DNA of 64,000 nucleotides from an uncultured candidatus Porisulfidus sp. GTDB taxonomy: Bacteria; Pseudomonadota; Gammaproteobacteria; Poriferisulfidales; Poriferisulfidaceae. Each line of letters starts with the position of its first letter. The first letter of the stretch is position 1. Location: contig OZ220480.1 of NCBI GenBank assembly GCA_965116025.1, positions 384,001-448,000 of the forward strand, read 5' to 3'. The notes under the pieces were generated by a model, which did not search any database, had not been told where the DNA came from, and was given only the letters and a program-made list of their open reading frames with translations. Of this stretch, positions 1 through 33,710 are shown piece by piece. Both the position numbers and the translations under genes were made by a program.

Positions 1-1823
1 CGCGCCCGACCGTCCCCCGGCTGAACCGAGAAGCCGGCCGGCTTCTCCGGAACCGACAGCTCGCGCACCGTCACCGACACGCTCCCCGCGTCCGCGAACG
101 CCGCCGCCGACTTCCCCGCGTACGTGAACCCGTGCGTGAGCGTCGCCGTCCCCGCCGCCACTCCGGTCACCGTCACCGTCTGCGCCACGTTCCAGCTCGA
201 CGACGTGAACGTCAGCCGCGACGGCTCGACCGTCGCCTTCCCCGCGTCCGAGCTCGACGCCGACACCACCCCCGACAGCGCCTCCGACAGCGCCACCGCG
301 TAGGTCGCGCCGCCCGTCCGCTCCACGCTCACCGTGGCGGGAGTCAGCGACAGCAACGGCTTGTTCGCGTTGACCACCGTGGCCTCGACCGTGTCGCTCC
401 AGGGCCCGGGGTCCGAGGCGTTCACCCCCCGCGCCTGATACTCCAGAACCTCGCCGTTGAAAAACCCGGACGTCACCACCTCATGCGATCTCGCGCTCCC
501 GTCCGACCCGGGGATCGAGACCTCCGTCCAGTCGGCTTCCCCTTCCCCCTTCCGCCGCCAGCGATAGTCGAAGCTCGTCGAGCCGTGACGCAAGCGCACG
601 CCCCAGCTCAGCCGCGCCATGTCCTCGCTCGCGGTCGCGCTCAGGCTCGTCAGGCTCAGCGGCGGCGCCACCCGAACGGTCACCGTCGTCGAGGTCGTCC
701 CCGCCGGATCCGCGCTGCCGTCCACCCCCCGCCAGCTCCAGGTCACCGTGTGCTTCCCCAAACCCAGATCCGCGCAGGGACTCAGGTTCGTGTTGGGACC
801 ACGACTCGACACGCCGGGAATCTCGCTCGTGACCTCCACGCCGATTTTCGAGTCCTTAAGCGCCGAATGCGCCGGAACCGCGGTCATCCCGGACCGCGTC
901 TCCAGATACTTCGTCCCGCCCTGCTCCACCGAAAGCAGGTTGAAGCACTCCCGCACCGTCGACTTCCCGGAAGGCTTGTTCGCGATGAAATCCGCCCTTG
1001 AGACTAGCGTCGGGGCCGGCTTCCGCGGCGTGGCCTCCACCCAGCCCTGGTTGTTGGCGGTGCTTATGGCGATCACGGTCCGGCCCCCCGGACCCACCAG
1101 CCGAACCCGGAAGACGCCTCGCTCGCCGTCGCCGTTCGCGGGCGCCCCATACGAGGCTTTTCTCGTGCTGACGCCGCCATCCAAATCGAGCCAACGGCCC
1201 TCTCCGTTCCGGTCCCGAAGCCGGATCCACTCGACCTGCCAGCTCACCGCCCCATCGGTGGAGCCCTTGTAATTCCAAAAAAGATCGAACCCACGATCCA
1301 CTCCTACCACCCTGAGGCTGACCTGCGGCAACGTCACGGAGCGCTCGCTGGAGAGACTCCCCGTGCCGCTGTCGGCATCGATCGTCTGCATCCGAAAGTA
1401 ATAGGTCTGGCCAGCGTCCAGTCCAGAAACGACGTGCGACCCCGAGCTCTTCCCCGCGGAGTCGGGAATGAGATTCCAGCCGCCATAACTTCCCGAGGAT
1501 GCCTTATACCGGTACTGCCATGCCCCAACCGAACTCGGAGACAGGCTCGTCTGGTAGTTCAGCGTGATCTCCCCGGAGTTCGGGCCCAACGTGACGCTGG
1601 TGAGGGTGGCCGCCCAGGCGACCCGCGGCGCGAGCGCGCAAAGCGCGAGAAGAAAAGCGGCGAGAAACGCCGCGCTCAGGCGGCGGGCGGCGCTCCCGAG
1701 GCGGCCATCCACCGCCTCAGCCCCGCCACCATATAGGGGGGGGGGGGGGGGGGCAGCGGATACGGAGGAGCGCGCGTCAGGCCCCAAGCGCCCGACCCGC
1801 CACGTCGCCAATACAGTCGTCAT
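1..1823 (-). CDS. Large secreted fibronectin type III / Ig-like repeat surface protein, 5' part only (runs off left edge), with poly-C tract in the leader
   Basis: Hand translation from ATG 1823 (GAGAGAG upstream) is open to the window edge: MTTVLATW...SAAPPPPPLYGG...LSAAFLAAFLLALCALAPRVAWA signal peptide, then FN3-like motifs (WQYRYK, HVVSGLDAGQTYYFRMQ, LSWGV..FDYRWRR, YQARGVNASDPGPWS) and LTFTSSSWNVAQTVTVTG. Absent from the ORF track because no stop is in the window. Confidence 0.85.
   Translation of the reverse strand, partial: MTTVLATWRVGRLGPDARSSVSAAPPPPPLYGGGAEAVDGRLGSAARRLSAAFLAAFLLALCALAPRVAWAATLTSVTLGPNSGEITLNYQTSLSPSSVGAWQYRYKASSGSYGGWNLIPDSAGKSSGSHVVSGLDAGQTYYFRMQTIDADSGTGSLSSERSVTLPQVSLRVVGVDRGFDLFWNYKGSTDGAVSWQVEWIRLRDRNGEGRWLDLDGGVSTRKASYGAPANGDGERGVFRVRLVGPGGRTVIAISTANNQGWVEATPRKPAPTLVSRADFIANKPSGKSTVRECFNLLSVEQGGTKYLETRSGMTAVPAHSALKDSKIGVEVTSEIPGVSSRGPNTNLSPCADLGLGKHTVTWSWRGVDGSADPAGTTSTTVTVRVAPPLSLTSLSATASEDMARLSWGVRLRHGSTSFDYRWRRKGEGEADWTEVSIPGSDGSARSHEVVTSGFFNGEVLEYQARGVNASDPGPWSDTVEATVVNANKPLLSLTPATVSVERTGGATYAVALSEALSGVVSASSSDAGKATVEPSRLTFTSSSWNVAQTVTVTGVAAGTATLTHGFTYAGKSAAAFADAGSVSVTVRELSVPEKPAGFSVQPGDGRA
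1736..1753. repeat. G18 homopolymer (C18 on coding strand) in leader of the FN3 gene; in frame as assembled
   Basis: Direct count; ATG 1823 and the downstream FN3 codons share a frame. Confidence 0.9.
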
Positions 1824-1865
1824 CTCTCTCGTATCTCCCTCGCTCCCACGCGCGCGGCGCGCGAC

Positions 1866-1871
1866 ATTATA
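1866..1871 (-). promoter_or_regulatory. Candidate sigma70 -10 box for the FN3 gene
   Basis: Perfect TATAAT on the minus strand about 45 nt upstream of ATG 1823 in GC-rich DNA. Confidence 0.45.
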
Positions 1872-1905
1872 AACGCATTTGGAATGGTCTCGGCGCCATC
1901 TCCGA

Positions 1906-3105
1906 TCAAAACTCGATCCGCCCCGTCACGTCGAAAACCTTGCGGTACTCCACCAGGATGTGCCGATCGCTCAGGCTGGCGATATAGTCGGCGATCACCC
2001 GCGCCCGCCCCGCATCGCCGCGCTCCTCCTCCTTCTCGCGGGCGCGTAGCCGCGACTCCGTCGGTAGCAGACCAGGCTTTTCCATGAAACTCTCGAACAG
2101 ATCCCGGATCACGCGGGCGATCTTGTTGGCGGCCCGCGCCAGCCGGTAATGACGGTAGAAGCGCTTCTCCAGAAACCGGGTCACCGGAACCATCTCGGCG
2201 CGAATCTCCTTGCCGAACGCGGCCAGCCGCTCTGGCCGGGCGCGCGCGTCCTGAACCGAGTCGGGCCGCGCCTTCTCGATTCGCTCCCGAGTGGTCAGGA
2301 TCAGGTCCGTCATCATGGCCGTGATCATGCGCCGATTGGCCTCGTGCAGCAGCGCGCGCCGAGTCAGGTTCGGGTCGCTTCTCCTCGCCGCGTCGTAAGC
2401 GTCGGAGAACAGGCGCAACTCCCGCGCGTCCTCAAGAGCGAGCAGTCCCAGCCGCAAGCCGTCGTCCAGATCGTGGTTCGTGTAGGCGATCTTGTCCGCC
2501 AGATCGACCAACTGGGCCTCCAAGGTCGGAGAGCCGCCTTTGAGAAACCGCTCCCCCAGCGGCCCAAGAGTCTTGGCGATCTCTTTCGGGCAACGCTTCA
2601 GCACGCCCTCGCGGGTCTCGAAACTCAGGTTCAGCCCCCGAAAGCTGGCGTACTTGTGCTCCAGCTTGTCGATGACGCGCAAGGATTGCAGATTGTGCTC
2701 GAATCCTCCGTACTCCTTCATGCAGTCGTCCAACACGTCTTGGCCAGCATGGCCGAACGGCGCATGCCCGAGGTCATGCGCCAGCGCGACCGCCTCGGCC
2801 AGATCCTCGTTGAGGCGCAGCGCGCGCGACAGCGCGCGCGACAGCTTGGCCACTTCAATGCTATGCGTCAGCCGAGTGCGAAAGGATCCGTCCGCGTAGT
2901 TCACCATGACCTGAGTCTTGTACTCCAGGCTCCGGAACGCGGCCGCGTGGATGATTCGGTCGCAGTCGCGCTGGTATAGAGTCCGGAACTCGTCCGGCGG
3001 CTCGGCGTGCCGGCGACCCCGCGAATGGAACTCGCTCGCAGCATACGGCGCGAGTCTGGACGCGCCTGGACCCTGGCCCCGGGATTCCAGCAGATCCACC
3101 GCCAT
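1906..3105 (-). CDS. dgt: Deoxyguanosinetriphosphate triphosphohydrolase
   Basis: RT..QRD.DRIIH.AAFR.L.YKTQV, RTRLTHSIEVA and AHDLGH.PFGH HD-domain motifs. Confidence 0.93.
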   Translation of the reverse strand: MAVDLLESRGQGPGASRLAPYAASEFHSRGRRHAEPPDEFRTLYQRDCDRIIHAAAFRSLEYKTQVMVNYADGSFRTRLTHSIEVAKLSRALSRALRLNEDLAEAVALAHDLGHAPFGHAGQDVLDDCMKEYGGFEHNLQSLRVIDKLEHKYASFRGLNLSFETREGVLKRCPKEIAKTLGPLGERFLKGGSPTLEAQLVDLADKIAYTNHDLDDGLRLGLLALEDARELRLFSDAYDAARRSDPNLTRRALLHEANRRMITAMMTDLILTTRERIEKARPDSVQDARARPERLAAFGKEIRAEMVPVTRFLEKRFYRHYRLARAANKIARVIRDLFESFMEKPGLLPTESRLRAREKEEERGDAGRARVIADYIASLSDRHILVEYRKVFDVTGRIEF

Positions 3106-3109
3106 GGGA

Positions 3110-4186
3110 TCAGCCCGTTCCCGCCAGCGTGGCCAGCAACGACCCCTCGTCCACCTGACCGGTGATTTCCGCTTGGCCGATCGCCCGCATCAGGACGAGG
3201 CGCTGTCCGCCGCCGACGTTTTTCTTGTCGTGCCGCATGTGGGCGCGCAACCGCTCGGCGGCCAGATTCCCCGGCAGTCGGGTCGGCAGCCCCGCGCGCT
3301 CCACAAGGGCCCGGATCCGCCCGACCGCGCGGGAGTCGAGCCATCCCATCCGCATCGACAAGTCGGCGGCCAGGACCAAGCCGCAGGCCACCGCCTCGCC
3401 GTGGCGCCACTCCACATAGCCCTGCTCGGTCTCGATCGCGTGCGCGAAGGTATGCCCCAAATTCAGCAACGCGCGCGCGCCGGAACGCTCCCGCTCGTCG
3501 GCCGCCACGACCCGCGCCTTGCTGGCGCAGGACGTCTTGATCGCGTAGACCAAGGCGTTCGCCTCCCGCGCCAGGACCTCCTCGATATGGTCTTCCAGCC
3601 ACTCGAAAAACTCCGCGTCGTCAATCAGGCCGTACTTGATGATCTCGGCCACTCCCGAGCGCAGCTCCCGGTCCGGCAAGCTGTCCAGCGTCAAAGGGTC
3701 GATCAGCACGACTTTCGGTTGCCAGAACGCGCCGATCATGTTCTTGCCCAGCGGATGGTTGACCCCGGTCTTGCCGCCGACCGAGGCGTCCACCTGCGCC
3801 AGCAGCGTGGTCGGGACCTGCGCGAAATCGACTCCGCGCATGTAGGTGGCGGCCGCGAAGCCAGCGAGATCGCCCACGACCCCTCCGCCGACCGCCACGA
3901 GAGCGCACCCCCGGCCCAGCCCCCGCTCCAGCAACCAGGTGTACAGTCCGTTAAGGTCTTCCAAGGTCTTGTGCCGCTCGCCATCCGGGAGGACGTAGCG
4001 CCCGCGGCAGGCCGAACCCAACTTCTCCGCGAGCGGGCGAGCGTATCGCTCCTCGACGCTCGGGTGAGTCACCAGCGCGACCTCGTCTCCCAAGAGCGCG
4101 GCCCAGCGCGCGGAATCCTCGAGCAACCCCTCGCTAATCAGAATCGGATACGAATCGCCCTTCAGGGCGACGGTCAGTTCGTGCAC
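3110..4186 (-). CDS. aroB: 3-dehydroquinate synthase
   Basis: GGGVVGDLAGFAAATYMRG, PTTLLAQVDASVGGKTGVN, LNLGHTFAHAIE. Confidence 0.97.
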   Translation of the reverse strand: MHELTVALKGDSYPILISEGLLEDSARWAALLGDEVALVTHPSVEERYARPLAEKLGSACRGRYVLPDGERHKTLEDLNGLYTWLLERGLGRGCALVAVGGGVVGDLAGFAAATYMRGVDFAQVPTTLLAQVDASVGGKTGVNHPLGKNMIGAFWQPKVVLIDPLTLDSLPDRELRSGVAEIIKYGLIDDAEFFEWLEDHIEEVLAREANALVYAIKTSCASKARVVAADERERSGARALLNLGHTFAHAIETEQGYVEWRHGEAVACGLVLAADLSMRMGWLDSRAVGRIRALVERAGLPTRLPGNLAAERLRAHMRHDKKNVGGGQRLVLMRAIGQAEITGQVDEGSLLATLAGTG

Positions 4187-4309
4187 GAGAAGTCCTTCAG
4201 CATCCGCGTCAAGCGGGATTCTATACCGATCGGTTCCGCCTCTCTCGAACGCCGCGCCAGCCGGAAGACGATTCTCCTGACGCCTCGCGCCGCGCGGAGC
4301 GACCGCGGG

Positions 4310-7299: not shown

Positions 7300-7337
7300 C
7301 GCCGCCGAGCGCTTGAATTCCGGACCATCAAGAGCGC

Positions 7338-8393
7338 TTGGCAATGACGACCGGCCTAATTCGAGCCCAGCGATACGCCGACGCGATCCGTGGCAGTGGA
7401 TTGTCGATCTACGACCCCGTTGAGGTCGGCGACCCTCAACTCTGGATTCCAACGCCGACGCTGGAACGTCTGCTCGACGCGACCATGTCTGGCGTCTCGC
7501 TCGCTGACCTCCCGCTACGCAGCCGCTCAAAGGTTGTCAAGGAACGCATCTGCCAGTCGCTCGGATACCCTGTGCCGCCCGGTTTCAAAAGGGTGAGGCC
7601 ACGCTTTCCGGGTCAACGCCTCGATGCCTACGCGCAAAAATCCAACAACCTCCAGATTTGGAATGAGCAACTGGAAGCCACCCGGCGCTACGCGATCATC
7701 CGGATTGGACCGAAGAACGAGATTCGCAAGGTCAAGGTAGTGACGGGCTCCGCGCTGGCGTCGCTCGACTCGACCGGAACTCTAACCCGGAAATATCAGG
7801 CGAGACTGATTCTTGGCGAAGCCAACGCGGAGCTGGTTAGCGAGAGGGATACGGACGCGCTCAGAGGCATTGTGGAGACGAACGTCGATCTGACGGATAC
7901 GGCTCGCCCAGCGAGCGGTCCAGGCGCAACGGGGTTATTGCCGATCCAAGGGATATTTGACCGCCTTCAGGTCCTTATAGGCGAATCGTTCGAAGATGTC
8001 GGGCGCGATCAAGAACGAAACCGAGGCGCGTTATTGCACAAACTCGTGTGTCAGATCTTGGGATGCGATGAGTATCGCGATGATGGCCAGTTTCCCGATA
8101 TTCGGAATCAGTTGTTGGAAGTGAAGCTCCAAACGTCGCCAACCATCGACCTGGGCTTGGCGCGTCCGAACAGCGAGGAAGCGTTGGACGCGCCGAGGTT
8201 TGGTAACCGGCAAGTTCGATATCGCGATGTCCGCTATGCGGTGTTCTACGCTCGGACTGATGGACGGGTCGTCACCTTGACGCATCTGTTTTTGAGCACT
8301 GGCGAAGAGTTCTTCGCTCGGTTTCCGCAGTTTCAGGGCGCGGTTCTGAATAAGAAGCTCCAGATCCCATTGCCGCCAGATTTCTTCGAATGA
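7338..8393 (+). CDS. Putative type II restriction endonuclease (PD-(D/E)XK)
   Basis: FPDIRNQLLEVKLQTSPTIDLG catalytic-like motif; convergent with a DNA methyltransferase; lower GC than the backbone. Confidence 0.65.
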   Translation: MAMTTGLIRAQRYADAIRGSGLSIYDPVEVGDPQLWIPTPTLERLLDATMSGVSLADLPLRSRSKVVKERICQSLGYPVPPGFKRVRPRFPGQRLDAYAQKSNNLQIWNEQLEATRRYAIIRIGPKNEIRKVKVVTGSALASLDSTGTLTRKYQARLILGEANAELVSERDTDALRGIVETNVDLTDTARPASGPGATGLLPIQGIFDRLQVLIGESFEDVGRDQERNRGALLHKLVCQILGCDEYRDDGQFPDIRNQLLEVKLQTSPTIDLGLARPNSEEALDAPRFGNRQVRYRDVRYAVFYARTDGRVVTLTHLFLSTGEEFFARFPQFQGAVLNKKLQIPLPPDFFE

Positions 8394-8405
8394 AAGACAA
8401 GGCTT

Positions 8406-10202
8406 TCAGCCTGATGCCCGCCCGGTAAAAGCCTTCCAGACCATCGCGTTAAGCTCTTTCTGATGCCGCCCGTTGGGCGTGGAGGATTCAACCCGATATA
8501 TCCGCTTCGCTTTGGCGATGATGGATTCGCCAAGAGACCCGCGCGGATCAGGGAGAGGGAAGTTCTCGACGTACTGCGTGATGAAACGCCTGCGCCCTGC
8601 GTAAAGCTTATTGTGGAAGCGCAGGTCGTAGAATCGTTCGATAAAGGTCGAGTTCGCGACGGCGGCCGCGAGCCATAGAAGGTCCAAGTTGGCGGGGTTC
8701 TCGACGACGAGCCAATAGCAATCCCCGTTGACGACAGAACCTTCAAGATCGATCCAGAACGTAGGCTGGTCCGCAATATCCCGAAAGACGAGCTTCGGTC
8801 GACTCCAAGAATCTGGATCTTGCGGGACCCAGATCTCATACCACTGTCGGCCCGCCTCGATGACATACCTTCGACTCTCCAGCGCGAGCCTGCGCGTCGC
8901 GAGATACGCTCGGCTACGGGGATACTGAGTCAAATCAACGGCGCGGCGACGCCCCTCCACCACCTCGTGCGGATAGAGTATCCGAGTGGGCCGGTCGAGA
9001 GAGCGCGGCTTGAAGCGCCGGGCGACATGATGAGTGGTGAGCGGCCTAAGAAGTTCTGGTCGCTCGGTCCTTGGCATATCCTGCCAATCATCGCGGATGA
9101 AGATTTTGTCCGCGCAGGTCTTCACGCCAACGCGGATTTTCCCGATATCGCGGAACGTTCCCCAACTACGCTCCGCCACGGCGCTCAACCAGTTATCGCC
9201 GGCTTCCGTCGCGACGCGCCAAACGCCATCGGGCGCGCCGTTCGTGTCGATCTTCCCATGCCGAACTTGAAAGTTGCGCCCGTCGTCTATTCTTACGACC
9301 CCTTCCGCGCGGAGAGCGGAAATCGGGTCGGCAGCTAACTGGGTCGCCGGGTCGGAGGTTTCGTAGATTGACGTGAACGCCGGAGCTTCGCGCTCGCGCC
9401 CATTCTTCCCCTGCACGAGCAAGACGGCTGGCAGAACCGCCGCCCGAAATAGTTTCGTGTCGCCCAAGTCCCAAGCATGGCGCACATTAAGTCGGTCAAA
9501 GAGAGCTCGTCGAACGGCCGATCCGGATCTGGTGGTCATGAAGCGATTGGACACGATGATTCCCGCGGTACCCTCCGACTTGAGAACTTGGGCGATGCCA
9601 AGAATGAACGCGTGATACAGATCAACGCGACCGGAAAGACCAAACCGCCTCGAGAGCGACCGCGCCTGCCGCGCGCCCATAATCTGCGCGCGCACGTAAG
9701 GAGGGTTCGCGACGATGAAGTCATACGCTTCAGGAGAGTCGGGATGAGAAAAACATCCGGTATCGTTAGGCCCGAAGTTGTCAAAAACGAATTGGAGGAA
9801 ATCGCCCGCCTCGAAACGGAGAGAAACGTCAGGAAATCGTCGTTGGATCCGTTTTCTGGCGATGTCGAGAGCTTCGGGATCCGTCTCGAACCCCCAGACC
9901 TCAATGCCTTCGCGCGGCTGGCGAGGGAGACGCTCAAGAAAGCTGACGAGAAGCTCTCCATGACCAATCGCGGGGTCCAGGACGCGAAATGAGCCTTCGC
10001 CGATCTTCTCTTCGGCGGAGCTCGCGATTTGCCGTGATACGAAATCGGCCAGCGGTTTGGGCGTGTAGACCGCGCCTTCAGCCTTCGCCTCGGTGACGAG
10101 GGCGTGACGTTTCGCGGGATGCGGCTCGCGCGGAAATTCCACCTGTGCCCAATCTCCTCTCCGTGATTCGCGCGAAGAGACCTTGATGCCACCTATAATC
10201 AT
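8406..10202 (-). CDS. N6-adenine DNA methyltransferase (gamma class, TaqI/Eco57I-like)
   Basis: GAVYTP, VLDPAIGHGELL (motif I) preceding IVANPPY (motif IV), DLYHAFI, C-terminal target-recognition region; true start may be downstream of 10202. Confidence 0.88.
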   Translation of the reverse strand: MIIGGIKVSSRESRRGDWAQVEFPREPHPAKRHALVTEAKAEGAVYTPKPLADFVSRQIASSAEEKIGEGSFRVLDPAIGHGELLVSFLERLPRQPREGIEVWGFETDPEALDIARKRIQRRFPDVSLRFEAGDFLQFVFDNFGPNDTGCFSHPDSPEAYDFIVANPPYVRAQIMGARQARSLSRRFGLSGRVDLYHAFILGIAQVLKSEGTAGIIVSNRFMTTRSGSAVRRALFDRLNVRHAWDLGDTKLFRAAVLPAVLLVQGKNGREREAPAFTSIYETSDPATQLAADPISALRAEGVVRIDDGRNFQVRHGKIDTNGAPDGVWRVATEAGDNWLSAVAERSWGTFRDIGKIRVGVKTCADKIFIRDDWQDMPRTERPELLRPLTTHHVARRFKPRSLDRPTRILYPHEVVEGRRRAVDLTQYPRSRAYLATRRLALESRRYVIEAGRQWYEIWVPQDPDSWSRPKLVFRDIADQPTFWIDLEGSVVNGDCYWLVVENPANLDLLWLAAAVANSTFIERFYDLRFHNKLYAGRRRFITQYVENFPLPDPRGSLGESIIAKAKRIYRVESSTPNGRHQKELNAMVWKAFTGRASG

Positions 10203-10979
10203 CCTATAAGCGTGGCGCTCTCCGCTTCACATCGTAAGCGTGAAAGCATTGTAACCCAGTAGAGAGTGGGAAAGCGGCGGGATGGCGGTAAGAACTGGGA
10301 GCCGAGTTCCCGCTCGCGCGCCGATAGCCGAGACGTTCCCCGAACGTGGCGACTTGGGCGGCGATGGCATGGCGAAATCCCCGCGAGCCATCCACGCCGA
10401 GCCTTTCGTCCGCTTCAGTGGACCAAACGCTCCCGACACCGCACCGGACAGCGGCGCTTTCCGGGCTCGCGATATAGAAAGCGGGACGCCAGCGCGACCG
10501 TGACGACTCGCCTTGGCCCGCATCACTGGCTCGCGGATCTAACGGGCGGCGAAGGAAGGGGCGGCGGAGGCTTCAGCATGGTGGTGAGTAAGGGCATCCC
10601 ATCTTTCTTGTCCTTTCATTTCCCCCGCCTATGCGCTTTCCTGGTGAGAGAATCGGTTCCTTCGCCATTGGTCAACCTCCCGCGTTTCGTTGGGATACGA
10701 GCCAGAATTGTCGACAGATGGCGGCCGTGGCGGCTGGCGCGAGCCTCCCGCGCTCAAGCGCTGATGAAACGCCCGCCAGAAGGAACGGGAACGCGGAAAT
10801 CCTCCTCAAACACCCAATCCACGCTCGTCGCCCTCCACCTTGGGATATCAGATAATTCATTGTAGAATCAACGGCGAAAAGCGATTCCGAGCCTTCTTCG
10901 GGATATTTCCATCTCGACTTCGCTCTTCGGCGGACTCCGCTCTCAATACCGATTTCCCTCGTTTCAGCCCTTCGTTCCA

Positions 10980-12776
10980 TTGCGCTCTGAACCCGCATCT
11001 CATTCGGTCGCGCCGTTGGACGTGGTCCTCTCTCGGAGCCGCGGCGCCCTGATCACCGTGGGCGCGCTGAGCGCGGCGGTGAACTTGCTGATGCTCACTG
11101 GACCGCTGTTCATGCTACAGATCTATGACCGGGTGCTGACCAGCCGGGCGGAGGCGACGCTCGTCGCCCTGCTCGCCATCGTCGTCTATCTCTATGGCTT
11201 GATGGGCCTGCTCAACGCCCTGCGCGGGCGCATCCTAGCGCGGATCGGAGCGGGGTTTCAGACCGCGCTCGATGAACGAGCGTTCGACGCGACGCTCCGC
11301 GCGGAACGCGAGCCGACCTTCGCCCGCGCGGGCGGACGGGCACTCCCGCAAGTGGAAACGGTACGCTCGTTTCTGGCTTCTCCGGCTCCGGGAGCGATCC
11401 TGGATCTTCCATGGATCCCGTTCTTCATTATCATCATCTTCATTTTTCATCCGCTGCTGGGATGGCTGGCGATCGCGGGCTCGATCATTCTGCTAACGCT
11501 CGCGCTGGCCAACAGATGGGCGACGAGCAAGCCACAGGCCTCGTCCGCGAAACTCTCCATTGACGCTCATATCCAGGCGGAGGACGCGCGCCGCGAGGTG
11601 GAGACGGTGCGCGGTCTGGGCATGATCGAGCCGTTGCGTGCGCGCTGGCGGGCGGTGCGGGAGGCGGCGCTGGACCAAGCGATGCGATCCGCGGACCCGA
11701 GCGGCGGATACACGTCCGCGAGCAAGGCGTTCCGGCTTCTGCTGCAATCGCTGATGCTGGCCCTCGGCGCGTGGCTGGTGCTTGAGGGCGAGCTGACGGC
11801 GGGAGCGATGATCGCGGCCTCGATTCTTCTGGGCCGTGCGCTGCAACCGCTGGAGCAAACGGTCCAGCAGTGGTCCCAGATCCGGGCCGCGCGGGCTAGT
11901 TGGCGATCACTCTCCGATCTGCTGAGGTCGATGCCACCGGAAACGCCGCCGATGGAGTTGCCCAAGCCCGTCGCGATCCTGCGCGCGCGCGACATGTCGG
12001 TATGGGCGCCAAACCGACGAGACGTGTTGCTCCGGGACGTGAACTTCGAAGTGACACCAGGCGAAGCGGTGGCAGTCATAGGGCGGAGCGGCGCCGGAAA
12101 ATCCACGCTCGCGAAAGCGCTCGTCGGGCTATGGCCGCTCAAGCGTGGAGAGATTCGGCTGGGAGGGGCGGAGCTCTCGGCTTGGGGCGAATCGCTCTGG
12201 CGCGACCATATTGGTTATCTACCGCAAGACGTGGCTCTGTTCACTGGCAGCGTGGCCGAGAATATTTCTCGTTTCGACCCGCGCGCTAGCGAGGAAGACG
12301 TGATTCGAGCGGCCATCCAAGCCGGAGCGCACGGGATGATCCTGTCTCTTCCGAACGCGTACGATACATTCCTCATGGGCGGTGGCGGACTGTCGGGCGG
12401 ACAGCGCCAGCGCATCGCCTTGGCGCGGGCGTTCTATGGCGACCCGGCCCTTCTGGTGCTGGACGAGCCGGACGCGCATATGGCGGAAGCATTCGGACTG
12501 AACCGGGCGATCGCCAAGATGAAGGCGGACGGACGGGCCGCGGTGGTTATCGCGCATCGGCGCGCGTCGATCAACGAATGCGCCCGGGTCGCCGTTATCG
12601 AAGATGGCCGTCTCCAGCTGTTCGGGCCACGTGAGGAGGTGATGGCGCGCATCGAGCAAAACCAAGTACGACAGTTGCCTACCGTGATCAAGGGAGGAAA
12701 CCGAGAGCGGGCCAAGGACGACGATGCCCCCCCCCCCCCCCCCCCCCCCCCAATGAAGCCGACGAGCGATGGTTGA
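10980..12776 (+). CDS. Type I secretion system ABC transporter (PrtD/AprD family)
   Basis: NLLMLTGPLFMLQIYDRVL, GRSGAGKST, LSGGQRQRIALARA, LVLDEP; poly-Pro tail encoded by the C25 tract. Confidence 0.93.
   Translation: MRSEPASHSVAPLDVVLSRSRGALITVGALSAAVNLLMLTGPLFMLQIYDRVLTSRAEATLVALLAIVVYLYGLMGLLNALRGRILARIGAGFQTALDERAFDATLRAEREPTFARAGGRALPQVETVRSFLASPAPGAILDLPWIPFFIIIIFIFHPLLGWLAIAGSIILLTLALANRWATSKPQASSAKLSIDAHIQAEDARREVETVRGLGMIEPLRARWRAVREAALDQAMRSADPSGGYTSASKAFRLLLQSLMLALGAWLVLEGELTAGAMIAASILLGRALQPLEQTVQQWSQIRAARASWRSLSDLLRSMPPETPPMELPKPVAILRARDMSVWAPNRRDVLLRDVNFEVTPGEAVAVIGRSGAGKSTLAKALVGLWPLKRGEIRLGGAELSAWGESLWRDHIGYLPQDVALFTGSVAENISRFDPRASEEDVIRAAIQAGAHGMILSLPNAYDTFLMGGGGLSGGQRQRIALARAFYGDPALLVLDEPDAHMAEAFGLNRAIAKMKADGRAAVVIAHRRASINECARVAVIEDGRLQLFGPREEVMARIEQNQVRQLPTVIKGGNRERAKDDDAPPPPPPPPMKPTSDG
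12727..12751 (+). repeat. C25 homopolymer at the 3' end of the T1SS ABC gene, 17 nt before the MFP start
   Basis: Direct count. Confidence 0.9.
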
Positions 12777-15733: not shown

Positions 15734-18700
15734 TCAGAAGCGAACCTTCAGCAGGACGCTCGCGCCGTAATCGTGATTGTCGCCATCCGACGCCGCGTAG
15801 TACGCGTCCGCCGAGAGCGTCGACTCCCCCTGCGCGTCCAGCGTCATCACGCCCCCGACGCCCAATCGCGCCCACGTCGACTCCACTTCCGAGCGCAGCC
15901 GCGCTCCCGACGCCATCACCTCCCGGCTCTCCGAGAGATCGCGTTCCAAATCCAGAGAAGCGTACGTCTGGCCATTCTCCAATAACGCCCCGATCCGCGC
16001 CCTCACGCTGTCCTCCGAGCGAAACGACACCCGACCGCTCCCAGTAACCCCCGACACGTCGGCGAAGCCATCAACGTCCACCCAAATCCACGTCAATCCC
16101 CCGCGCGGAACCAGCGCGAAGCCGTCCATCTCCAGTCGCCTGCCAACCTCCACGCCGATCGCGTGACCCTCTCCGTCCAGACCGGACGCCACCATCCCGC
16201 GCGCCTCCGAACTCAAGTCGACGTCCTTGAAACGCGTGTACGAGAACTCCCCGTCCGCGTACCAGCCGTCCTCTCCCCGCCAGGTCGCCGAAGCCCCAAC
16301 ACCAACGCCCGAGACCTCGATCTTCCCGCCGCGCGCGACGTCCGCCTCGCCATCACGGTAGTGCGCGCTCACCCCCAGCATAAGCCCCGGCGCGTCCGTG
16401 GGAACGACGAAGCCCGTCTCCACGCCCCAGCGCTCGAAGTCCCAAGACAGCGCGCGACCCGCATCGTCCATCTCGGTCGTGGACATATCCGCCTCCCGCT
16501 CGCCGTCGCTCGCCAACACCCGCGCCCACGCGCGCCCACCATCTCGCGTCGCCGACAAGCGCGCCTGGCGACCGCCCGGAGCGCTCATCTCCAGCAGCAC
16601 CGACGGCAACGCCTCGTACACCCGAGCCCGGGCGTGGTACGTCCGACTGATCTCCTTCTCGGAGTCCACCTGGAACTGGTGCCCGCCCGTGATCGACTTC
16701 AGCGTGACCATCCGCTCGAACACCGCGTCGTACACCCCATGCGTCCCCGTCTTCCCCGACGTCGCCTTCACCGCGTCCCCCACGGCTATCGTCTTCGCCA
16801 TGCCGGCCGTCGACTCGCGCTGGAAGACGTTCGGCGTTTTATCGCCACTATTCAGGAATTTCCCCTTGACGAACGCGATCTGCCCATGCGCGTTCTCCTT
16901 CAGGGTGACATGCAGCGCCTTGTCCGCGCTCACCGCGATCCCCGACGTCGCGCCAATCTCCGCCTTCGGCCCGATCACCAGCGTCCCGCCGTTCACCATC
17001 CGAACGCCGGCGTGCTCGCCGGCGCCGCCCATCACCTTGCCGTTGATCGTGACCGTCTGGTCGTATTGCCCTTTCCGGGCGTGGTCGGACGCGAAGGTCC
17101 GCATCCCCTTGACATGCACCCCGTCCTTCTTGGCCCGGATCGTCGCCATCTCCCCCACCGTGACCGTGATCTTCCCGGCCGTGGGCGCTTCCATTTCCGT
17201 GTAGGCAGTGGCGGTCTCCGCGTAGACTCCGTATCCATCAGCCATGATCACACCGCCCGACACATCGATCATGATTGGGATGATCATCTTTCGAGCGTCA
17301 CCATCATCCGAATCGTCCAGGTCTTTCACGTAGGCCAGAATGCCGTCGCCCCTCGACATGATGTCCGCCTTCGACATGATCTTGATCTCCCCGATCTCGG
17401 TGGTGTAGGTCTCGGGGTTCCCCTCATCGAGCTCCTTGCCGGGAAGTGGCTGGGACTCCGCGCCCCCATGGATGGCGAGAATGCCGGCGGTCCGATCCTT
17501 CAGGTCCGCCAGCTTCGTCTGGTGATCCGCCGAGAGCGAGGAGGAGGAGAATACGTCGGACAGGTCGCCCGCGGTGATCTTCCCCGCCAAATGCTTCACG
17601 TCCACCTCGCCCCAACCGGTATGCAACGCGAAGACCCCGGAGCCTTTCGCGTGGATGAGGCCCTCGTTGGTAATCATGACGGGGATCTCGTTGTCCGAGG
17701 ATATGGTCTCGGCGAACACGCCATGCCCGCCGACTGGAGCGCCGGCGGTCCCGATCCGCGCTCCCTCGGAGACGGTCACCCGAATCGTTCCCCCGTGGGT
17801 CTGGTGGAGGGCGTACACGCCATGTCGACCCACGGTCGGCTCGTCTCCTTCCATACCGATCCGCGCCCCCGACTTCAGCGTCACCTCAATGTCTCGGTTG
17901 ATGTCGCCGCGCTGGCTGTCGTCGTGCGTCGTGCCCCGGTAAACGTAGATCCCGTCCCCGCCAGTTCCCGTCGAAGCGATCTCGCCCGCGAGATCCACCT
18001 TGACCAGACCACCGTTGTGGCCAGCGGAATTAACGTAAATTCCGTCTCCCACGATCTCCGTGTTCCGCCCGCCCGCCGTGATGACGCCCCCCGTCACGTC
18101 GACCGTCACCGGAACCACGGAATCGGAGTCCCCTTGCGTAGTGACGGAGATGCCATAAGTGCGGGCCCAAATATCTCCGCTCGAGGTGATCATGATCGTG
18201 CCGCTAGGAACCTCGGCGGCGCCCATGGTCGTGTCCCTATGATCAACGGTTATACCATTTTCGTGGATAAACGCGTTATCGGCTAAATCCAGCGTGGCCT
18301 CATCGCCCGAGAGCGTTCGCGGGTAGAGAGGCCATTGCCTCTTGCTGACAAGCGTCCCGTGGTTCGTGACGGTGATGTCGCCCCCCTTGAAGAGGTTGAC
18401 TAGAATGCCCTTGCTGGTCACGCTGCCCTTCGCCGTCTCGATGGCGACGTCTCCAGACCCCTCGTTGTACACGTAGATTCCTCGGTAATATCCGTAAATC
18501 TCGCCCCGGTTCATGATCGAGACGTCGCCCTCGGCGGACGCGTTTCTGTAATACGCGAACACCCCATAAAGCCCCACCGGAATCTCCTCAGTGCCGATCC
18601 GCGCCTCGGCCCCGACCGTGATCTCGATCTTGTCCGCCCTGTTGGTTTTGGAGGCTTTCTTGTTCCAGACGGTGATCCCGTAGTTCCTGTTGCCCCGCTG

Positions 18701-19248
18701 ATACTGGGGATCAATGAACGTCCCACTGAGCCGCTGGCCATTCTCCGTGTACATGGCCGTGGTGGGCGGAGTCCAACCGCCCGCCTCGTTCACGATCCTC
18801 ACCTTGCCTTCCAGATTCACCGTCAGCGCCCCGTCGCCGACCACCGCGACCCCGGGATTCCGGCCTTGGGTGGGACTGTCGGCAGAAGTGGGAGTATTGC
18901 GAGGAAGGAACGACTTGATGGTCGTCATCTCCCCGGAAGGCTTCACGGTCAGCGTCAAGCCGCCTGTCTGACCCGTGTACTCGATAGGATTGGGAGTGGC
19001 GCTGGTGCCGCCGTAGGTCGAGGCGGCGCAGGTGACCGTTTTGGTGGCGCCGACATCGCCGCACTGGTTCGCCTTGGCGGAATGCGGAATCAGTGGGATC
19101 GAGAGAGCGGCCGTCAGCCCGGCCAGAGCGATCAGGAAACGAGGGCTATGCCCCCCCCCCCCCCCCCCCCCCCCCCTACGCGGGAAGACGACGAGGCGAC
19201 GCGACGCGCGGCGCGCACGGTATCAGAAAAATGCGGGTTGACTCTCAT
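15734..19248 (-). CDS. Autotransporter 1 (beta-helix passenger plus beta-barrel), frameshifted in leader at G26 tract; putative phase-variable OFF state
   Basis: ATG 19248 reads MRVNPHFSDTVRAARRVASSSSRV-(G)n; the main frame resumes at 19150 with HSPRFLIALAGLTAALSIPLIPHSAKA signal peptide and continues into ORF 15734..18958, ending YGASVLLKVRF. With 26 G the leader stops at TGA 19132-19134. Confidence 0.87.
19151..19176. repeat. C26 homopolymer (G26 on coding strand) in autotransporter 1 signal-peptide region
   Basis: Direct count; a multiple of 3 is needed to restore the frame. Confidence 0.9.
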
Positions 19249-19283
19249 TGAGAAATCCTGATGGCGATGAATGATTGGAGCGG

Positions 19284-28620: not shown

Positions 28621-29571
28621 ATGCTCTACCCCGCGATCCGCCCCTATTCGACCCGTCGCCTGCAGGTCGACGGGCGACATGCATTGCATGTGGAGGAGTG
28701 CGGCAGTCCAGAGGGCGTGCCGGTGGTGTTCCTGCACGGCGGCCCGGGCGCAGGTTGCGAGGACTACCATCGCCAGTTCTTCGATCCGGAGAAATACCGA
28801 ATCGTGCTGTTCGACCAGCGCGGCGCCGGACGCTCGACGCCCCACGCGGACTTGACCGACAACACCACGGCTCATCTAGTCGAGGACATCGAGAAGATCC
28901 GCGAGGAGCTGGGAATCGACCGGTGGCTCGTGTTCGGCGGCTCCTGGGGCTCCACCCTCGGGCTGGCCTACGCCCAGAGCCACCCGAAACGCGCGCTGGG
29001 CCTGATCTTGCGCGGCATCTTCCTGTGCCGGCGGCGCGACCTCCTTTGGTTCTACCAGGAAGGCGCGGACAATATCTTCCCCGATTACTGGCGGGACTTC
29101 TTGGAGCCCATACCGGAAGCGGAGCGCGGCGACCTGATGCGGGCCTACCACCACCGACTGACCGGGCCTGACGAGCTGATCCGCATGAAGGCGGCCAAGG
29201 CCTGGGCGCTCTGGGAGGCGCGCTGCTCGAATCTGCAGCACGACGCCCGGGTCGTGGAGGCGTTCAGCGACCCGCACATGGCGCTCGGTCTGGCGCGCGT
29301 GGAGTGCCACTACTTCGTCAACCGAATCTTCCTGCCAGAGAACCAGTTGCTGAAGCGAATCGGGAAACTGACGGGGGTTCCGGGAATTCTGGTGCATGGA
29401 CGCTACGATATCGTCTGCCCCATCGATCAGGCTTTCGCGCTGCATCGCGCCTGGCCCGGGTCGCGCCTGGACCTAATTGCCGAAGCGGGGCACTCGGCCC
29501 GAGAGCAGGGCATCACCACCGCCCTGATCGCGGCCACCGAGGAGATGCACTCGCGCCTGACTCGGGCGTGA
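28621..29571 (+). CDS. pip: Proline iminopeptidase
   Basis: HGGPG, FDQRGAGRSTP, GGSWGSTL, GRYDIVCP. Confidence 0.95.
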   Translation: MLYPAIRPYSTRRLQVDGRHALHVEECGSPEGVPVVFLHGGPGAGCEDYHRQFFDPEKYRIVLFDQRGAGRSTPHADLTDNTTAHLVEDIEKIREELGIDRWLVFGGSWGSTLGLAYAQSHPKRALGLILRGIFLCRRRDLLWFYQEGADNIFPDYWRDFLEPIPEAERGDLMRAYHHRLTGPDELIRMKAAKAWALWEARCSNLQHDARVVEAFSDPHMALGLARVECHYFVNRIFLPENQLLKRIGKLTGVPGILVHGRYDIVCPIDQAFALHRAWPGSRLDLIAEAGHSAREQGITTALIAATEEMHSRLTRA

Positions 29572-30117
29572 GGCCTGGACGGCCTAGCCCAGCGCTAGTC
29601 CCCGCCTGTCCGGCGGCATCCGGTTCCGGTCGGCGACCCTCGCGGCGCGGTGCCAGCTGGAGGCCCTCTTGGGAAAAACTTCGCGGTCAGCTCGACTTCG
29701 CTCATGCCGACACCCATCCCACGGGAGGATTCTCAATTTCCGAGCTAACGCCGATTTTGAGGAAATTCCTAGATGGTTTCTCGCCTTCACGGACGCGCTA
29801 GGAAATGCGGGTAGGTATTTGGGGCGGCCGAGGACGGCTCGGGTAGATTTTCGCGAGAAAAACTCGGATTCCACCCGATTCTCGTAGAGCGTAGCTTGGC
29901 CTCTCGCGCGCCTACGCGAGCCGCGTCTTCCAAATGGCCCGTCTTTTCCCTGAAAGCGCCAGCTTCGAGCGGTCAGAACGTGTCCCAAGCCGGAAGACCA
30001 GATATTCGGCGCGACACGCTCCTGACATCCAGCACGTGATCCCTCCGGAAGCCCACCCACAACTTCCGGACTCGTCGGATCAGTTTCGCGCCGAGGCCGG
30101 CCGCGATCACAAGTCGG

Positions 30118-33100
30118 TCAGAAGCGAACCTTCAGCAGGACGCTCGCGCCGTAATCGTGATTGTCGCCGTCCGACGCCGCGTAGTGAGCGTCACCCGATA
30201 GCGTCGACTCCCCTTGCGCGTCCAAGACCATCACGCCCCCGCTGCCCAAACGCGCCCACGTGGACTCCACCTCCGAGCGCAGCCGCGACCCCGAAGCCAT
30301 CACGTCCCGGCTCTCCGACAGCTCGCGCTCCACGTCCAATGAGGCGTACGTCTCGCCGTTCTCCAACAGTACCCCGATACGCGCCCGCGCGCTGTCCTCC
30401 GAGCGAAACGACACCCGACCGCTTCCAGCAACGCCCGAAACGTCGGCGAAGTCGTCGACATCCACCCATGTCCACGTCAATCCTCCGCGCGGGATCAGCG
30501 CGAAGCCGTCCATCTCCATGCGCCTGCCGACCTCCACGCCGACCGCGTGACCCTCTCCGTCCAGACCGGACGCCACCATCCCCCGAGTCTCCGAGCTCAG
30601 GTCGACATCCTCGAAACGCGTGTACGAGAGCTCCCCGTCCGCGTACCAGCCGTCCTCCCCCCGCCAAGTCGCCGATGCCCCGACGCCCACGCCCGAGACC
30701 TCGATCTTCCCGCCCCGCGCGACGTCCGCCTCGCCGTCGCGGTAGTGCGCGCTCACGCCCAGCATCAGCCCCGGCGCGTCCGTAGGAACGACGATGCCCG
30801 TCTCCACGCCCCAGCGCTCGAAATCCCAAGACAGCGCGCGACCCGCATCGTCCATCTCGGTCGTGGATGTCTCCACCTCCCGCTCGCCGTCGCTCGCCAA
30901 CACCCGCGCCCACGCGCCCCCGCCGTCCCGCGTCGCCGACAAACGCGCCTGACGACCGCCCGGCGCGCTCATCTCCAGCAGCACCGACGGCAGCGCCTCG
31001 TACACCCGAGCCCGGGCATGGTACGTCCGGCTGATCTCCTTCTCGGAGTCCACCTGGAACTGATGCCCGCCCGTGATCGACCTCAGCGTGACCATCCGCT
31101 CGAACACCGCGTCGTACACCCCATGCGTCCCCGTCTTCCCCGACGTCGCCTTCACCGCGTCCCCCACGGCGATCATCTTCTTCGCGCCGGCCATCAACTC
31201 CCGCTGGAAGACGTTCGGCGCGTCCTTTCCACTGTTCAGGAATTTCCCCATGACGAAAGCGATCTGCCCATGCTCGTTCTCCTTCAGGGTGACATGCAGC
31301 GCCTTGTCCGCGCTCACCGCGATCCCCGACGTCGCGCCGATCTCCGCCTTCGGCCCGATCATCAGCGTCCCGCCGTTCACCATCCGAACGCCGGCGTGCT
31401 CGCCGCCGCCGCCCATCACCTTGCCGTTGATGGTGACCGTCTGGTCGTAGTGCCCCGCCCGGGTAGCGTGATCTTCCGCGAAGGTCCGCATGCCCTTGAC
31501 ATGCACCCCGTCCTTCTTGGCCCGGATCGTCGCCATCTCCCCTACCGTGACGCTGATCTTCCCGGCTTTCGGCGCGTCCTCGTCCTCGTAGGTGGTGGCC
31601 GTCTCCGCGTGCACGCCATGCCCGTCCGCCATGATCGTTCCGCCAGCCACGTCGATCTTGATCGGGACGATCATCTCGATGTCCTGTACCCCCTCCGCGT
31701 CGTTCAAGTCTTTCACATAGGCGAGAATGCCGTCGCCCTTCGACGTGACGCTCCCTTTCGACGTGATCTCGATCTTCCCGATCTTGGCCTCGTAGGTGGA
31801 GGGGGCTTGAGAGTCGACCGCCGTCTCGTCGGAAGCCGCCTGGGGCCGCGAACTCCCATGAACGGCGAGGATGCCGGCGGTCCTGCCTTTCAGGTCCGCC
31901 AATTCCATCTTTTCAGACTCCGTTATGGAATCCACGTCACTGTCCAAGATATCGAGCGCGTCGCCCGCGACGATCTCGCCCTTCAAGTGCTTCGCGACCA
32001 CGTCGCCCCAGCCGCGATGCAGAGCGGCCACCCCCGAGCCCTTCGCGTGGATGAAGCCTTCGTTGGTGACCGTGATATCAGTCTCGTCAGTAGAATTGAC
32101 CACATTAGTGAACACGCCGTGTCCGCCAACCGGAGTCCCCGCGGTCCCGATCATCGCTCCCTCGGATACCGTCACCCGGATCGCTCCCCCGTAGATTTGC
32201 TGCTGGACGAGCACGCCATGCCGACCCACGGTCGGCTCGTCTCCCTCCACGCCGATCCGCGCCCCGGACTTCAGCGTCACCTCAATGCCGCTGGGTTTCA
32301 CGACGGCCGCCGGTTTGGTCGGTCGGAACCGATACGCATGGATGCCATCGCCACCTTCGCCAGCTGTGCCCGTCCGGGTGATCGCGCCCGCCAGATCCAC
32401 CTTGACGAGACCCCCGTTATGCTCATGATGAATTTTGATCCCGTGGCCGTTCAATCCGCCCCCCATGAGGCTCCCTCCCGTCACGTTGATCGTGACCGGA
32501 ACCACGGAATCGTCGTCCCCTTTCGTCGTGACTCGAATGCCTTCCGTCCACCAATAGGGCGCGACGCCCGGGTCCGTCACGACCTCGATGTCGCCGCTCG
32601 ACGTGATCGAGACCTCGCTGCTGGCCTGCCCGTCCGCGGCCGGAGCGCTCTTGTCCTCGTGAAACACGTGAATCCCGGCGCGCGCGTACGCGCTTCGAGT
32701 TTCCACATGCCCGCTCTCCGTCGGATTCGCCATTTTCAGATAGCGGAGCGGATGGCTCTGAACCACGATCTTGCCCTCATGGACGATCGTGATGTCACCG
32801 CCGCCAGAAGACGAGCCCGGGGCTATCCAAACATCCCTAAGCCAGCGCTCTTCCAGACCCTCGTCCTGGAGATTCCCCGCCGACGCCCGGATCCCTTGCG
32901 AGGTCACGCTATTCTTCGCCGTCTTGATCACGGTGTCGCCCCCGCCCGAGCGATGCGCCAGTATCCCGGCATACGTCCCGTAAATCTCGCCCGCGTTCGT
33001 CACGCTGATGTCCGTGTCATGCTGAAAGTACGCTAGAACGCCGTACCCGCCCATCGGTTTGTCCTCGGTTCCGATCCGCGCCTCGTCTCCCACCATCACC

Positions 33101-33710
33101 TCGGCGCGGTCCTTCTGAGCGTCGGCGTCGCTTCCCAAGTGCTTCACGTAGACGCCGTGGTTGAGCCCCGCCCCGCGGTCCCTCGAATCAATGGCCTTCC
33201 CGATGCGCGTGACCGTCGTGGACAGCCCCGTCACGAGCCTCCGGGTCGCCCCGCTCTCAATGCGGACCCGCCCATCGAGAACGACTTTCTTCAGGGCGCC
33301 GGGCCCGCTCAGGACGATCCCCGGCCGAGCGTCGCTCGCGCCACTGGGTATTCCACTGGACGTGATGGTGACCGTGCCCGCCCCGGAAGGCTGGACCGTC
33401 AGCGTCACGCTCCGGCCTGGCGCGGCGAGATCGTATCCGATCGGCGGGCCGTCGGCCTTGGTGTAGGTCGGGTCGTCGCAAGTGACTTCGGCGGCGCCCG
33501 AGCCGCTGGGAAGGTCGCCGCAGTTTCCCGTGTCCGCCGCCATGGCGGAGTGCGGAATCAGCGGAATGGAGAGAACGGCCGTCAATCCGGCCAGAACGGT
33601 CAGGAAACGGAGGCTATGCCCCCCCCCCCCCCCCCCCCCCCTACGCGGGAAGACGACGAGGCGACGCGAAACGCGGCGCGAATCTCGGAAACGGACAGGT
33701 TCTTGGTCAT
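30118..33710 (-). CDS. Autotransporter 2, paralog of autotransporter 1, frameshifted in leader at G23 tract; putative phase-variable OFF state
   Basis: ATG 33710 reads MTKNLSVSEIRAAFRVASSSSRV-(G)n then stops at 33600; the main frame resumes HSLRFLTVLAGLTAVLSIPLIPHSAMA into ORF 30118..33585, ending YGASVLLKVRF. Confidence 0.87.
33619..33641. repeat. C23 homopolymer (G23 on coding strand) in autotransporter 2 signal-peptide region
   Basis: Direct count; same flanks as the 19151 tract (GGCTATG-Cn-TACGCGGGAAGACGACGAGGCGACGCG). Confidence 0.9.

Follow-up and report, generated by a model that had tools for sequence, protein, structure and literature searches.

Neisseria carries poly-G or poly-C tracts in the 5' coding region of pilC, within the part that encodes the signal peptide, and of the autotransporter genes nalP and mspA/ausI, and the phase-variable tracts of this genus are about 7 to 17 nt long. 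Poly-G tracts are also present in some members of the pmp autotransporter family of Chlamydia pneumoniae, and Campylobacter jejuni has, to our knowledge, no MutS/MutL mismatch repair. Here we describe the long G/C homopolymers of a sponge-associated Candidatus Porisulfidus, whose genome is a single contig of 2,018,984 bp with 62.7% G+C. Four of them, named T1 to T4, lie in a 64-kb stretch (positions 384001-448000 of the contig, hereafter the window), and coordinates given below are those of the window unless marked genome. To judge from their sequence context, the tracts of this genome probably make up a set of slipped-strand contingency loci that spans the genome, with the same mechanism as the known loci of this kind. 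The set differs from known cases in its tract-length regime (15-39 nt, and up to 70 nt in relatives), in its 45 loci in 2 Mb with one module copied 24 times, in the presence of mismatch repair and in the sponge-symbiont lifestyle of its bearer.

As in Neisseria, the tract typically stands between the start codon and the mature protein, its length modulo three would decide expression, and mismatch repair is present. Unlike Neisseria, where single genes or small families carry much shorter tracts, the present genome holds a family of 24 near-identical switch modules. Like C. pneumoniae, it is a host-associated bacterium with a small genome in which members of a large family of paralogous autotransporters have poly-G frameshift sites, but in the pmp family only some genes carry a tract, whereas here it is present, and far longer, at one common codon in 24 of the 25 full-length paralogues. 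The present bacterium differs from C. jejuni in that it has both MutS and MutL, and in that it is a sponge symbiont and not a pathogen.

In other respects C. jejuni is a close parallel, with G/C homopolymers in the coding sequences of genes for surface structures, glycosylation and restriction-modification and with many loci per small genome that combine into 'phasotypes' (PMC8355987, in part). Indeed, the loci listed in that part of the paper include the phase-variable autotransporter gene capA (cj0628) and a Type II restriction-modification gene. However, the poly-G tracts of C. jejuni are described there as being held mainly at G9-G10 by mutational biases, whereas in the present genome tracts of 9-14 nt are missing, the mode is 23 nt and the range is 15-39 nt. 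For Neisseria, the phasome survey PMC5084427, in the sections available, gives surface proteins and restriction-modification genes as main targets, as is the case here. Finally, the trimeric autotransporter adhesin gene badE of Bartonella contains homopolymers in the first part of its reading frame, as the genes described below do, and these mononucleotide repeats change length during host passage (PMC11466379, in part). The badE repeats measure about 9-12 nt, the adhesin is of type Vc and its switching was shown by experiment in that report, whereas the present tracts are known from sequence alone.

Occurrence and gene classes of the tracts

Exactly four long G/C homopolymers were found in the window, namely G18 at 1736-1753 (T1), C25 at 12727-12751 (T2), C26 at 19151-19176 (T3) and C23 at 33619-33641 (T4), and the homopolymers next in length are five runs of 7 nt. 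The original prediction for this stretch had listed the same four, with identical lengths and starts, as the only long homopolymers in 64 kb. Given the base composition of the genome, 0.0025 G/C runs of at least 15 nt would be expected per 64 kb versus the four observed. The prediction had also proposed a genome-wide listing of G/C runs, which gives 45 runs of at least 15 nt (15-39 nt) versus 0.078 expected on the same basis. Ordinary G/C runs number 9,497 of 4 nt, 2,327 of 5 nt, 459 of 6 nt, 62 of 7 nt and 9 of 8 nt, and none of 9-14 nt occurs in the whole 2.02 Mb genome. The length distribution is made of two separate parts, the long one extending from 15 to 39 nt with a mode at 23 nt (9 runs), and A/T runs reach 10 nt at most. 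It is thereby confirmed that the tracts occur far beyond chance.

We considered whether G is kept on one fixed strand, and this was rejected: of all 45 tracts, 32 have G on the leading strand and 13 have C there, and the base on the sense strand is G in the autotransporters (family A below) but C in the FN3 family (family B). When the tracts are oriented as G runs, a TA dinucleotide is found immediately 5' of 7 of the 21 tracts outside family A and of most family A copies, a count inflated by paralogues, compared with 49 of 2,848 ordinary G/C runs of 5-7 nt (1.7%). TA followed by G reads as a TAG stop, which closes one incoming frame.

All 45 tracts were oriented, their adjoining open reading frames (ORFs) were examined and Pfam families were assigned. 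In this way 43 of the 45 were placed in surface, glycosyltransferase, restriction-modification/defence or secretion classes: 24 belong to autotransporters (family A), 5 to FN3 proteins (family B), 1 to a giant FN3 protein, 8 to restriction-modification or defence genes, 3 to glycosyltransferases and 2 to secretion-gene junctions. The remaining two are at genome positions 808735 and 858333. No housekeeping coding sequence contains any of the 45 tracts. The absence of window tracts from housekeeping genes had been predicted and is borne out. The same prediction had placed three tracts in signal-peptide coding regions, those of an FN3 adhesin and of two autotransporters, and the fourth at a gene junction of a type I secretion system (T1SS), with which the Pfam matches and the reading of frames agree. 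Restriction-modification, defence and glycosyltransferase genes, which it had left unmentioned, carry tracts as well.

Eight tracts lie in or beside restriction-modification or defence genes. In the assembly, the tract breaks three of these genes in two, namely those of a Type ISP enzyme, of an Eco57I-like enzyme and of an N6_Mtase. The other five tracts belong to an N6_N4 methylase, GmrSD, a site beside BglII, a site beside DUF499 and a GHKL-type ATPase. Three tracts are within two tandem GT2-GT1 glycosyltransferase pairs, and the two secretion-gene junctions are that of T2 and one where the tract is located 110 nt before another HlyD-like gene. The targets are hence surface, glycosyltransferase and restriction-modification genes and not housekeeping genes, a set which, as far as the available parts of PMC8355987 and PMC5084427 describe it, is that of the contingency loci of Neisseria, Haemophilus, Campylobacter and Helicobacter.

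The autotransporter family

T3 and T4 each stand near the start of a large autotransporter gene, as given here with a promoter-like site upstream of the second gene.

19151..19176, - strand: T3, C26 on the + strand and G26 in the sense direction; begins 24 codons after the autotransporter ATG; out of frame as assembled
15734..19248, - strand: autotransporter gene of T3, family A; ATG at 19248-19246, followed by leader, tract, signal-peptide core, variable passenger and beta-barrel; PF03797, E=1.6e-25
33619..33641, - strand: T4, C23 on the + strand and G23 in the sense direction; begins 23 codons after the ATG of the second autotransporter; out of frame as assembled
30118..33710, - strand: autotransporter gene of T4, family A; ATG at 33710-33708; PF03797, E=1.8e-25
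33751..33780, - strand: promoter-like site, TTGGAA, 18-nt spacer, TATAAT; 10 of 12 matches, a consensus match only; about 40 nt upstream of the ATG of the T4 gene

Read from its ATG, the T3 gene as assembled gives a product of 38 codons, consisting of the 24-residue leader, glycines from the tract and a stop, and the T4 gene one of 36 codons. The frame found after each tract contains a hydrophobic core, an Ala-x-Ala site and a long open frame (1,138 codons in the T3 gene and 1,166 in the T4 gene). As this frame has no start codon upstream of the tract, both genes are one base out of frame as assembled. The position of the promoter-like site, 5' of the ATG, would place the tract of the T4 gene inside the transcribed and translated region; promoter scans gave a supporting site for T4 only. 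Both window genes end in a type Va barrel, PF03797 matching their C-termini with E about 1e-25. The signal peptide of the family, with its hydrophobic core and Ala-x-Ala site after the tract, was judged by eye, and the Pfam ESPR model has no match at E<=0.001.

The two genes belong to a family whose 24 tracts all occupy one codon position, some 24 codons after the start of the signal-peptide leader. The members have a common layout, with a Shine-Dalgarno-like sequence, an ATG 69-75 nt upstream of the tract, a leader of one of about four types, a Ser-rich motif, the G tract and then the signal-peptide core. In the two wrong frames, translation meets a TAG 2 codons or a TGA 7 codons past the tract. 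Frame arithmetic puts 4 of the 24 copies in frame as assembled (genome 1062605, 1471950, 1498267 and 1586276), 9 off by one and 11 off by two. One of the in-frame copies reads as a continuous protein of 1,186 aa that ends in the beta-barrel and matches TIGR01414. A protein search of the genome showed no internal stop in any copy, with open frames of about 900-1,200 codons, and the open frames that follow the 24 tracts measure 889-1,166 codons. The gene behind a tract of OFF length is thus otherwise intact throughout the family.

Over about the first 750 alignment columns, the passengers have mean pairwise identities of 0.40-0.67, compared with 0.85-0.94 for the barrels, and identity over the whole protein is 58-90% with a median of 67%. 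The passenger matched no Pfam family and no PDB sequence, and its atlas matches are weak, the pectate-lyase-like BigA and pertactin clusters scoring 0.85-0.88, below the 0.9 line. The tract is present at the same codon in 24 of the 25 full-length paralogues. The twenty-fifth (genome 508081-511000) differs in its leader, lacks a homopolymer where the others have theirs, and is possibly a constitutively expressed copy.

Outside this species the family is hardly represented. In 6 of 15 other genomes of the genus, one or two distant autotransporter homologues can be found (29-35% identity, in the barrel part), and the rest have none. Moreover, exact pattern scans of public genome and metagenome contigs, the own genome excluded, returned 0 matches to the tract with its conserved family A flank. 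Family A is an expansion of this species.

The FN3 adhesins

The remaining surface-protein tract of the window, T1, is in an adhesin gene that extends beyond the window.

1736..1753, - strand: T1, G18 on the + strand and C18 in the sense direction; encodes Ala-Pro5-Leu within an FN3 adhesin's N-terminal leader; assembled length in frame (ON)
3..1823, - strand: 5' part of the gene of an FN3-repeat surface protein; ATG at 1823-1821; the whole gene is genome 378870-385823, 2,317 aa, fn3 E=8e-34

From its ATG the T1 gene encodes a 24-residue leader, five prolines and then a signal-peptide core with an AWA-A cleavage-like site. The 566 aa within the window have no Pfam match when taken alone, and the whole protein matches fn3. 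Family B comprises five tracts near the start of genes for FN3 proteins that measure 1,255-2,317 aa and include one with an autotransporter barrel as well, and a sixth FN3 tract is located 22 nt before the first ATG of a giant FN3 protein of 7,325 aa. An ATG upstream is in frame with four of the five family B tracts (18, 21, 21 and 18 nt) but not with the fifth, of 19 nt. At genome position 1747365 a paralogue of T1 has C19 and is out of frame; its flanks are 0.94 identical to those of T1 and the two lengths differ by one C. The four lengths that are multiples of three argue weakly for translation through the tract, in a sample of five genes two of which are recent duplicates. Together with family A, tract length alters the reading frame in 24 autotransporter and 5 FN3 genes.

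Length variation, relatives and mismatch repair

The five closest pairs of autotransporter genes, with flank identities of 0.93-0.97, all differ in the length of the tract (17/20, 23/19, 19/25, 23/21 and 23/25 nt), and tract length, as far as these pairs indicate, changes faster than its flanks. The GHKL-ATPase gene has an orthologous tract, which is C20 in the present genome and C19 in a second species of the genus, with the same 5' position in both and 57% identity between the proteins (E=8e-176). By a reading of the flanks, that second species has an in-frame copy, counted from its ATG, and the copy of the present genome is out of frame. A neutral homopolymer would not survive such divergence.

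The closest public genomes are those of Candidatus Porisulfidus, among them several complete chromosomes, with a PBP1A identity of at most 81%. Runs of at least 15 G are present in 17 of 31 related genomes, including 11 of 15 in the genus and 5 of 7 in a second family, and in none of the 8 genomes from two families with genomes of 0.9-1.2 Mb. With each tract entered a single time, the numbers of tracts of at least 15 nt in five complete relatives are 12, 14, 12, 6 and 8, the lengths reaching 45 and 70 nt (C70). In five other complete genomes of the genus 5, 31, 17, 3 and 11 tracts of at least 12 nt were counted, and shorter tracts are thus retained in sister species. One sister genome has 31 tracts of at least 12 nt, only two or three of which reach 15 nt, compared with 45 of at least 15 nt and none of 9-14 nt in the present genome. 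The tract-length regimes look species-specific, and differences in sequencing or base-calling may contribute to this.

Pfam was used on 19 of the 28 ORFs of at least 150 aa that follow tracts in the relatives, nine of the shortest being left out. Adhesin-type repeats were found in 10 of the 19 (Calx-beta in 3, PKD in 2, fn3 in 3, Big_9/cadherin in 1 and SWM in 1), with 2 of these 10 below the Pfam curated cut-off. The other ORFs gave one methylase-HNH, one FGE-sulfatase, one sulfotransferase and 6 without a Pfam match. Furthermore, several of the relatives' tracts are directly followed by a signal-peptide-like sequence, as judged by eye.

MutS and MutL domains are encoded here in open frames of 871 and 583 aa, and both are also present in all tract-bearing relatives. 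In the reduced relatives of 0.9-1.2 Mb, no MutS/MutL domains were detected and no long G/C tracts are found. Loss of mismatch repair as the cause of the long tracts was rejected, given that MutS and MutL are present here and in the tract-bearing relatives while the genomes without them are tract-free.

The tract at the type I secretion locus

The fourth window tract, T2, is placed differently, at the junction of two secretion genes.

10980..12776, + strand: T1SS permease/ATPase of the PrtD subfamily; ABC_membrane and ABC_tran; TIGR01842, 598.7 bits (cut-off 510); conserved part ends at residue 557 of 598
12727..12751, + strand: T2, C25; falls at residues about 583-591 of the ABC protein, within its non-conserved C-terminal tail; 17 nt upstream of the hlyD start codon
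12769..14067, + strand: HlyD-family T1SS periplasmic adaptor; TIGR01843, 322 bits (cut-off 209), residues 15-432; with the tract as assembled, the ABC stop codon and the hlyD ATG overlap

The genes of the ABC permease/ATPase and of the HlyD adaptor are side by side, as expected of a PrtD-type T1SS. The three possible frames past T2 stop after 1, 8 or 22 codons, and in the hlyD frame a stop is found between T2 and the hlyD ATG. Since all frames end within 22 codons in the non-conserved ABC tail and hlyD starts after the tract, T2 turns neither gene off. Its length may act on the translational coupling of the ABC gene to hlyD, and would at most tune hlyD expression.

A segment of 901 nt around the T2 junction found no full-length match in the 15 genus genomes, where only short ABC motifs and other poly-C runs were hit. 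Nor did these genomes yield an orthologue of the ABC protein at E<=1e-40, a single match being 26% identical, and for want of such an orthologue the PrtD/HlyD pair is taken to be accessory to this species. A placement in the tail of the upstream gene, as for T2 in the ABC gene, is also seen in the two GT2-GT1 pairs (genome 88191-90919 and 95586-97971), whose tracts of 30 and 39 nt are 24-72 nt before the GT2 stop codon; one GT1 copy has an extra tract of 16 nt near its 5' end.

The original prediction had gone further and proposed a phase-variable switchboard across unrelated adhesins and a secretion system. For the adhesins this stands up well at the level of sequence, as the three tracts T1, T3 and T4 are between the start codon and the hydrophobic core of the signal peptide, where length sets the frame, and 24 autotransporter and 5-6 FN3 genes of the genome are built in this way. 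The secretion system has to be taken out of it: its tract is indeed at a secretion-gene junction but cannot switch the ABC gene or hlyD on and off.

Proposed mechanism and alternative explanations

The anatomy of the loci, their frames, the intact ORFs, the gene classes and the conservation in relatives, all observed directly, fit a slipped-strand switch. In family A, translation would start at the ATG 69-75 nt upstream and produce a leader of about 24 residues, poly-glycine from the G tract and then the signal-peptide core with its cleavage site. One of the three tract-length frames would yield the full autotransporter of about 1,150 aa, and the other two would end 2 or 7 codons past the tract. 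In the FN3 adhesins the C tract would be read as poly-proline at the equivalent position. Replication slippage on such long runs would lead to frequent changes in length, and each cell lineage would display a different random subset of the 24 autotransporters and about 6 adhesins, with restriction-modification/defence genes and glycosyltransferases varying alongside. We infer this slippage, its reversibility and its benefit, which would be escape from host phagocytosis or recognition and from phages. T2 would be an exception, its length altering the ABC tail and the position of the ABC stop relative to the hlyD start.

Several points weigh against this interpretation. Hypermutability and reversibility are deduced from assembled contigs and not from read lengths. 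The lengths themselves come from a consensus assembly of an uncultured population, in which runs of 15-39 nt are hard to call, and the ON/OFF counts are possibly one base wrong. Only 4 of the 24 family A copies are in frame compared with 8 expected under random frames, a deviation which is not significant (chi-square on 4/9/11 about 3.25, 2 degrees of freedom). In the FN3 genes the start codon may lie after the tract (a GTG in family B, the ATG 22 nt after the tract in the giant gene), which would put the tract in the 5' untranslated region. T2 has no on/off logic, altering only the ABC tail and the end of ABC translation relative to the hlyD start. Lastly, and as a serious modifier of the mechanism, RNA polymerase may slip on runs longer than the RNA-DNA hybrid, and this would blur a clean switch at the DNA level and make the copies leaky.

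Taken to its full extent, this last point becomes an explanation of its own, which we regard as conceivable though rather unlikely. Transcripts of mixed length would be made from tracts longer than the RNA-DNA hybrid, about one third of them in frame whatever the length of the DNA, and the expression of all copies would be lowered and randomised; such a dimmer can coexist with slippage of the DNA. Transcriptional slippage on homopolymers is well established (Wagner et al. 1990, as cited in PMC5084427). Tract lengths of 15-39 nt here and of up to 70 nt in a relative would suit it, as would the fact that all 24 copies keep intact ORFs though 20 of them are out of frame at the DNA level. On the other hand, four of the five FN3 tracts are multiples of three, suggesting that the frame of the DNA matters, and slippage is held to be more frequent on A/T than on G/C runs (PMC5084427, in part).

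It is also possible, with a lower probability still, that the conserved block around the tract, which could form a G-quadruplex where at least 15 G are present, is mainly a crossover point at which promoters and leaders are shuffled with passengers among the 24 paralogues, so that gene conversion would produce antigenic variation. Indeed, upstream identity (-72 to -31) and identity over the first 60 nt after the tract are uncorrelated (r=0.09 over 276 pairs), the approximately four leader types and the mature N-termini assorting independently. In 16 pairs the leaders are at least 90% identical but the stretch from +61 to +150 at most 75%, and 3 pairs show the reverse; the passengers, moreover, are 40-67% identical compared with 85-94% for the barrels. 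Shuffled leaders and N-termini of this kind, seen over the 24 autotransporter 5' ends, of which two are in the window (19100-19250 and 33560-33710), point to putative recombination breakpoints in the conserved block around the tract. However, the conserved flanks would suffice for mosaicism and the tract is not needed for it, the strand of the G run is inconstant (sense in the autotransporters, antisense in the FN3 genes), and single-copy genes such as those for restriction-modification and the glycosyltransferases carry tracts without having a recombination partner.

That the tracts are mutational accidents and the out-of-frame copies pseudogenes is very improbable. Such decay would account for the 20 of 24 autotransporters that are out of frame as assembled, both window genes included, but a second lesion is absent from every copy over about 1,100 codons, and intact frames in out-of-frame copies are hard to reconcile with decay and are expected if each copy is used at times. 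The tract is moreover at the same codon in all 24 copies, the orthologous tract persists between species at 57% protein identity, and tracts are confined to gene classes of the contingency type. Although long homopolymers are error-prone on every platform and the lengths are consensus-based in this metagenome assembly, it is scarcely credible that the runs or their lengths were made by the platform or the assembler, given that they all belong to one contig of 2.02 Mb, occupy the same defined codon in 24 paralogues, occur on either strand and differ in length, that they recur in many independently assembled relatives, and that an artefact would not select signal-peptide leaders and restriction-modification genes.

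Implications for sponge symbionts

Eukaryote-like surface proteins are the usual suspects for the means by which sponge symbionts escape a host that eats bacteria. No paper describing such tracts in sponge symbionts was found at the level of titles and abstracts, with supplements and subscription journals outside this coverage. If the tracts are slipped-strand contingency loci, it is possible, and we offer it tentatively, that sponge symbionts, here Candidatus Porisulfidus, evolved a distinct regime of such loci. The tracts would be 2-4 times longer than in any studied pathogen, kept despite mismatch repair and held at species-specific set-points (about 12-14 nt among sister species, 15-39 nt in the present genome and as much as 70 nt in one relative). 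At such lengths DNA and RNA would both take part in the switching, the conserved module with its tract would also serve as a site of crossover that shuffles leaders and passengers among the 24 autotransporters, and the outcome would be a continuously randomised, eukaryote-like adhesin coat that escapes phagocytosis by the filter-feeding host as well as phages.

In the present genome about 30 such surface proteins, or about 6.5% of the DNA (summed ORF lengths), are placed behind tracts taken as hypermutable, together with restriction and defence genes. This leads to the prediction that the symbiont populations in one sponge are mosaics of surface types and of phage-resistance types. Furthermore, tracts of 15-70 nt in bacteria proficient in mismatch repair challenge the view that mutational bias holds poly-G near 9-10 nt. 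In practical terms, a standard annotation pipeline would label at least 22 genes of the present genome as pseudogenes or truncated ORFs.

Neighbouring features of the window

The tRNA genes of the window are a cluster of four on the - strand at 43823-44178 and a single one at 33861-33933, beside the autotransporter gene of T4. Three public runs, all from one study, cover the region as contigs, and one of them is identical to the window and may be the run from which it was assembled. In another of the public runs, from a related strain, window positions 7300-10614 are absent and 161 other letters are found in their place. The segment carries an Eco57I/TaqI-like methyltransferase gene at 8406-10202 on the - strand, and is a strain-variable restriction-modification island that adjoins the T1SS genes.

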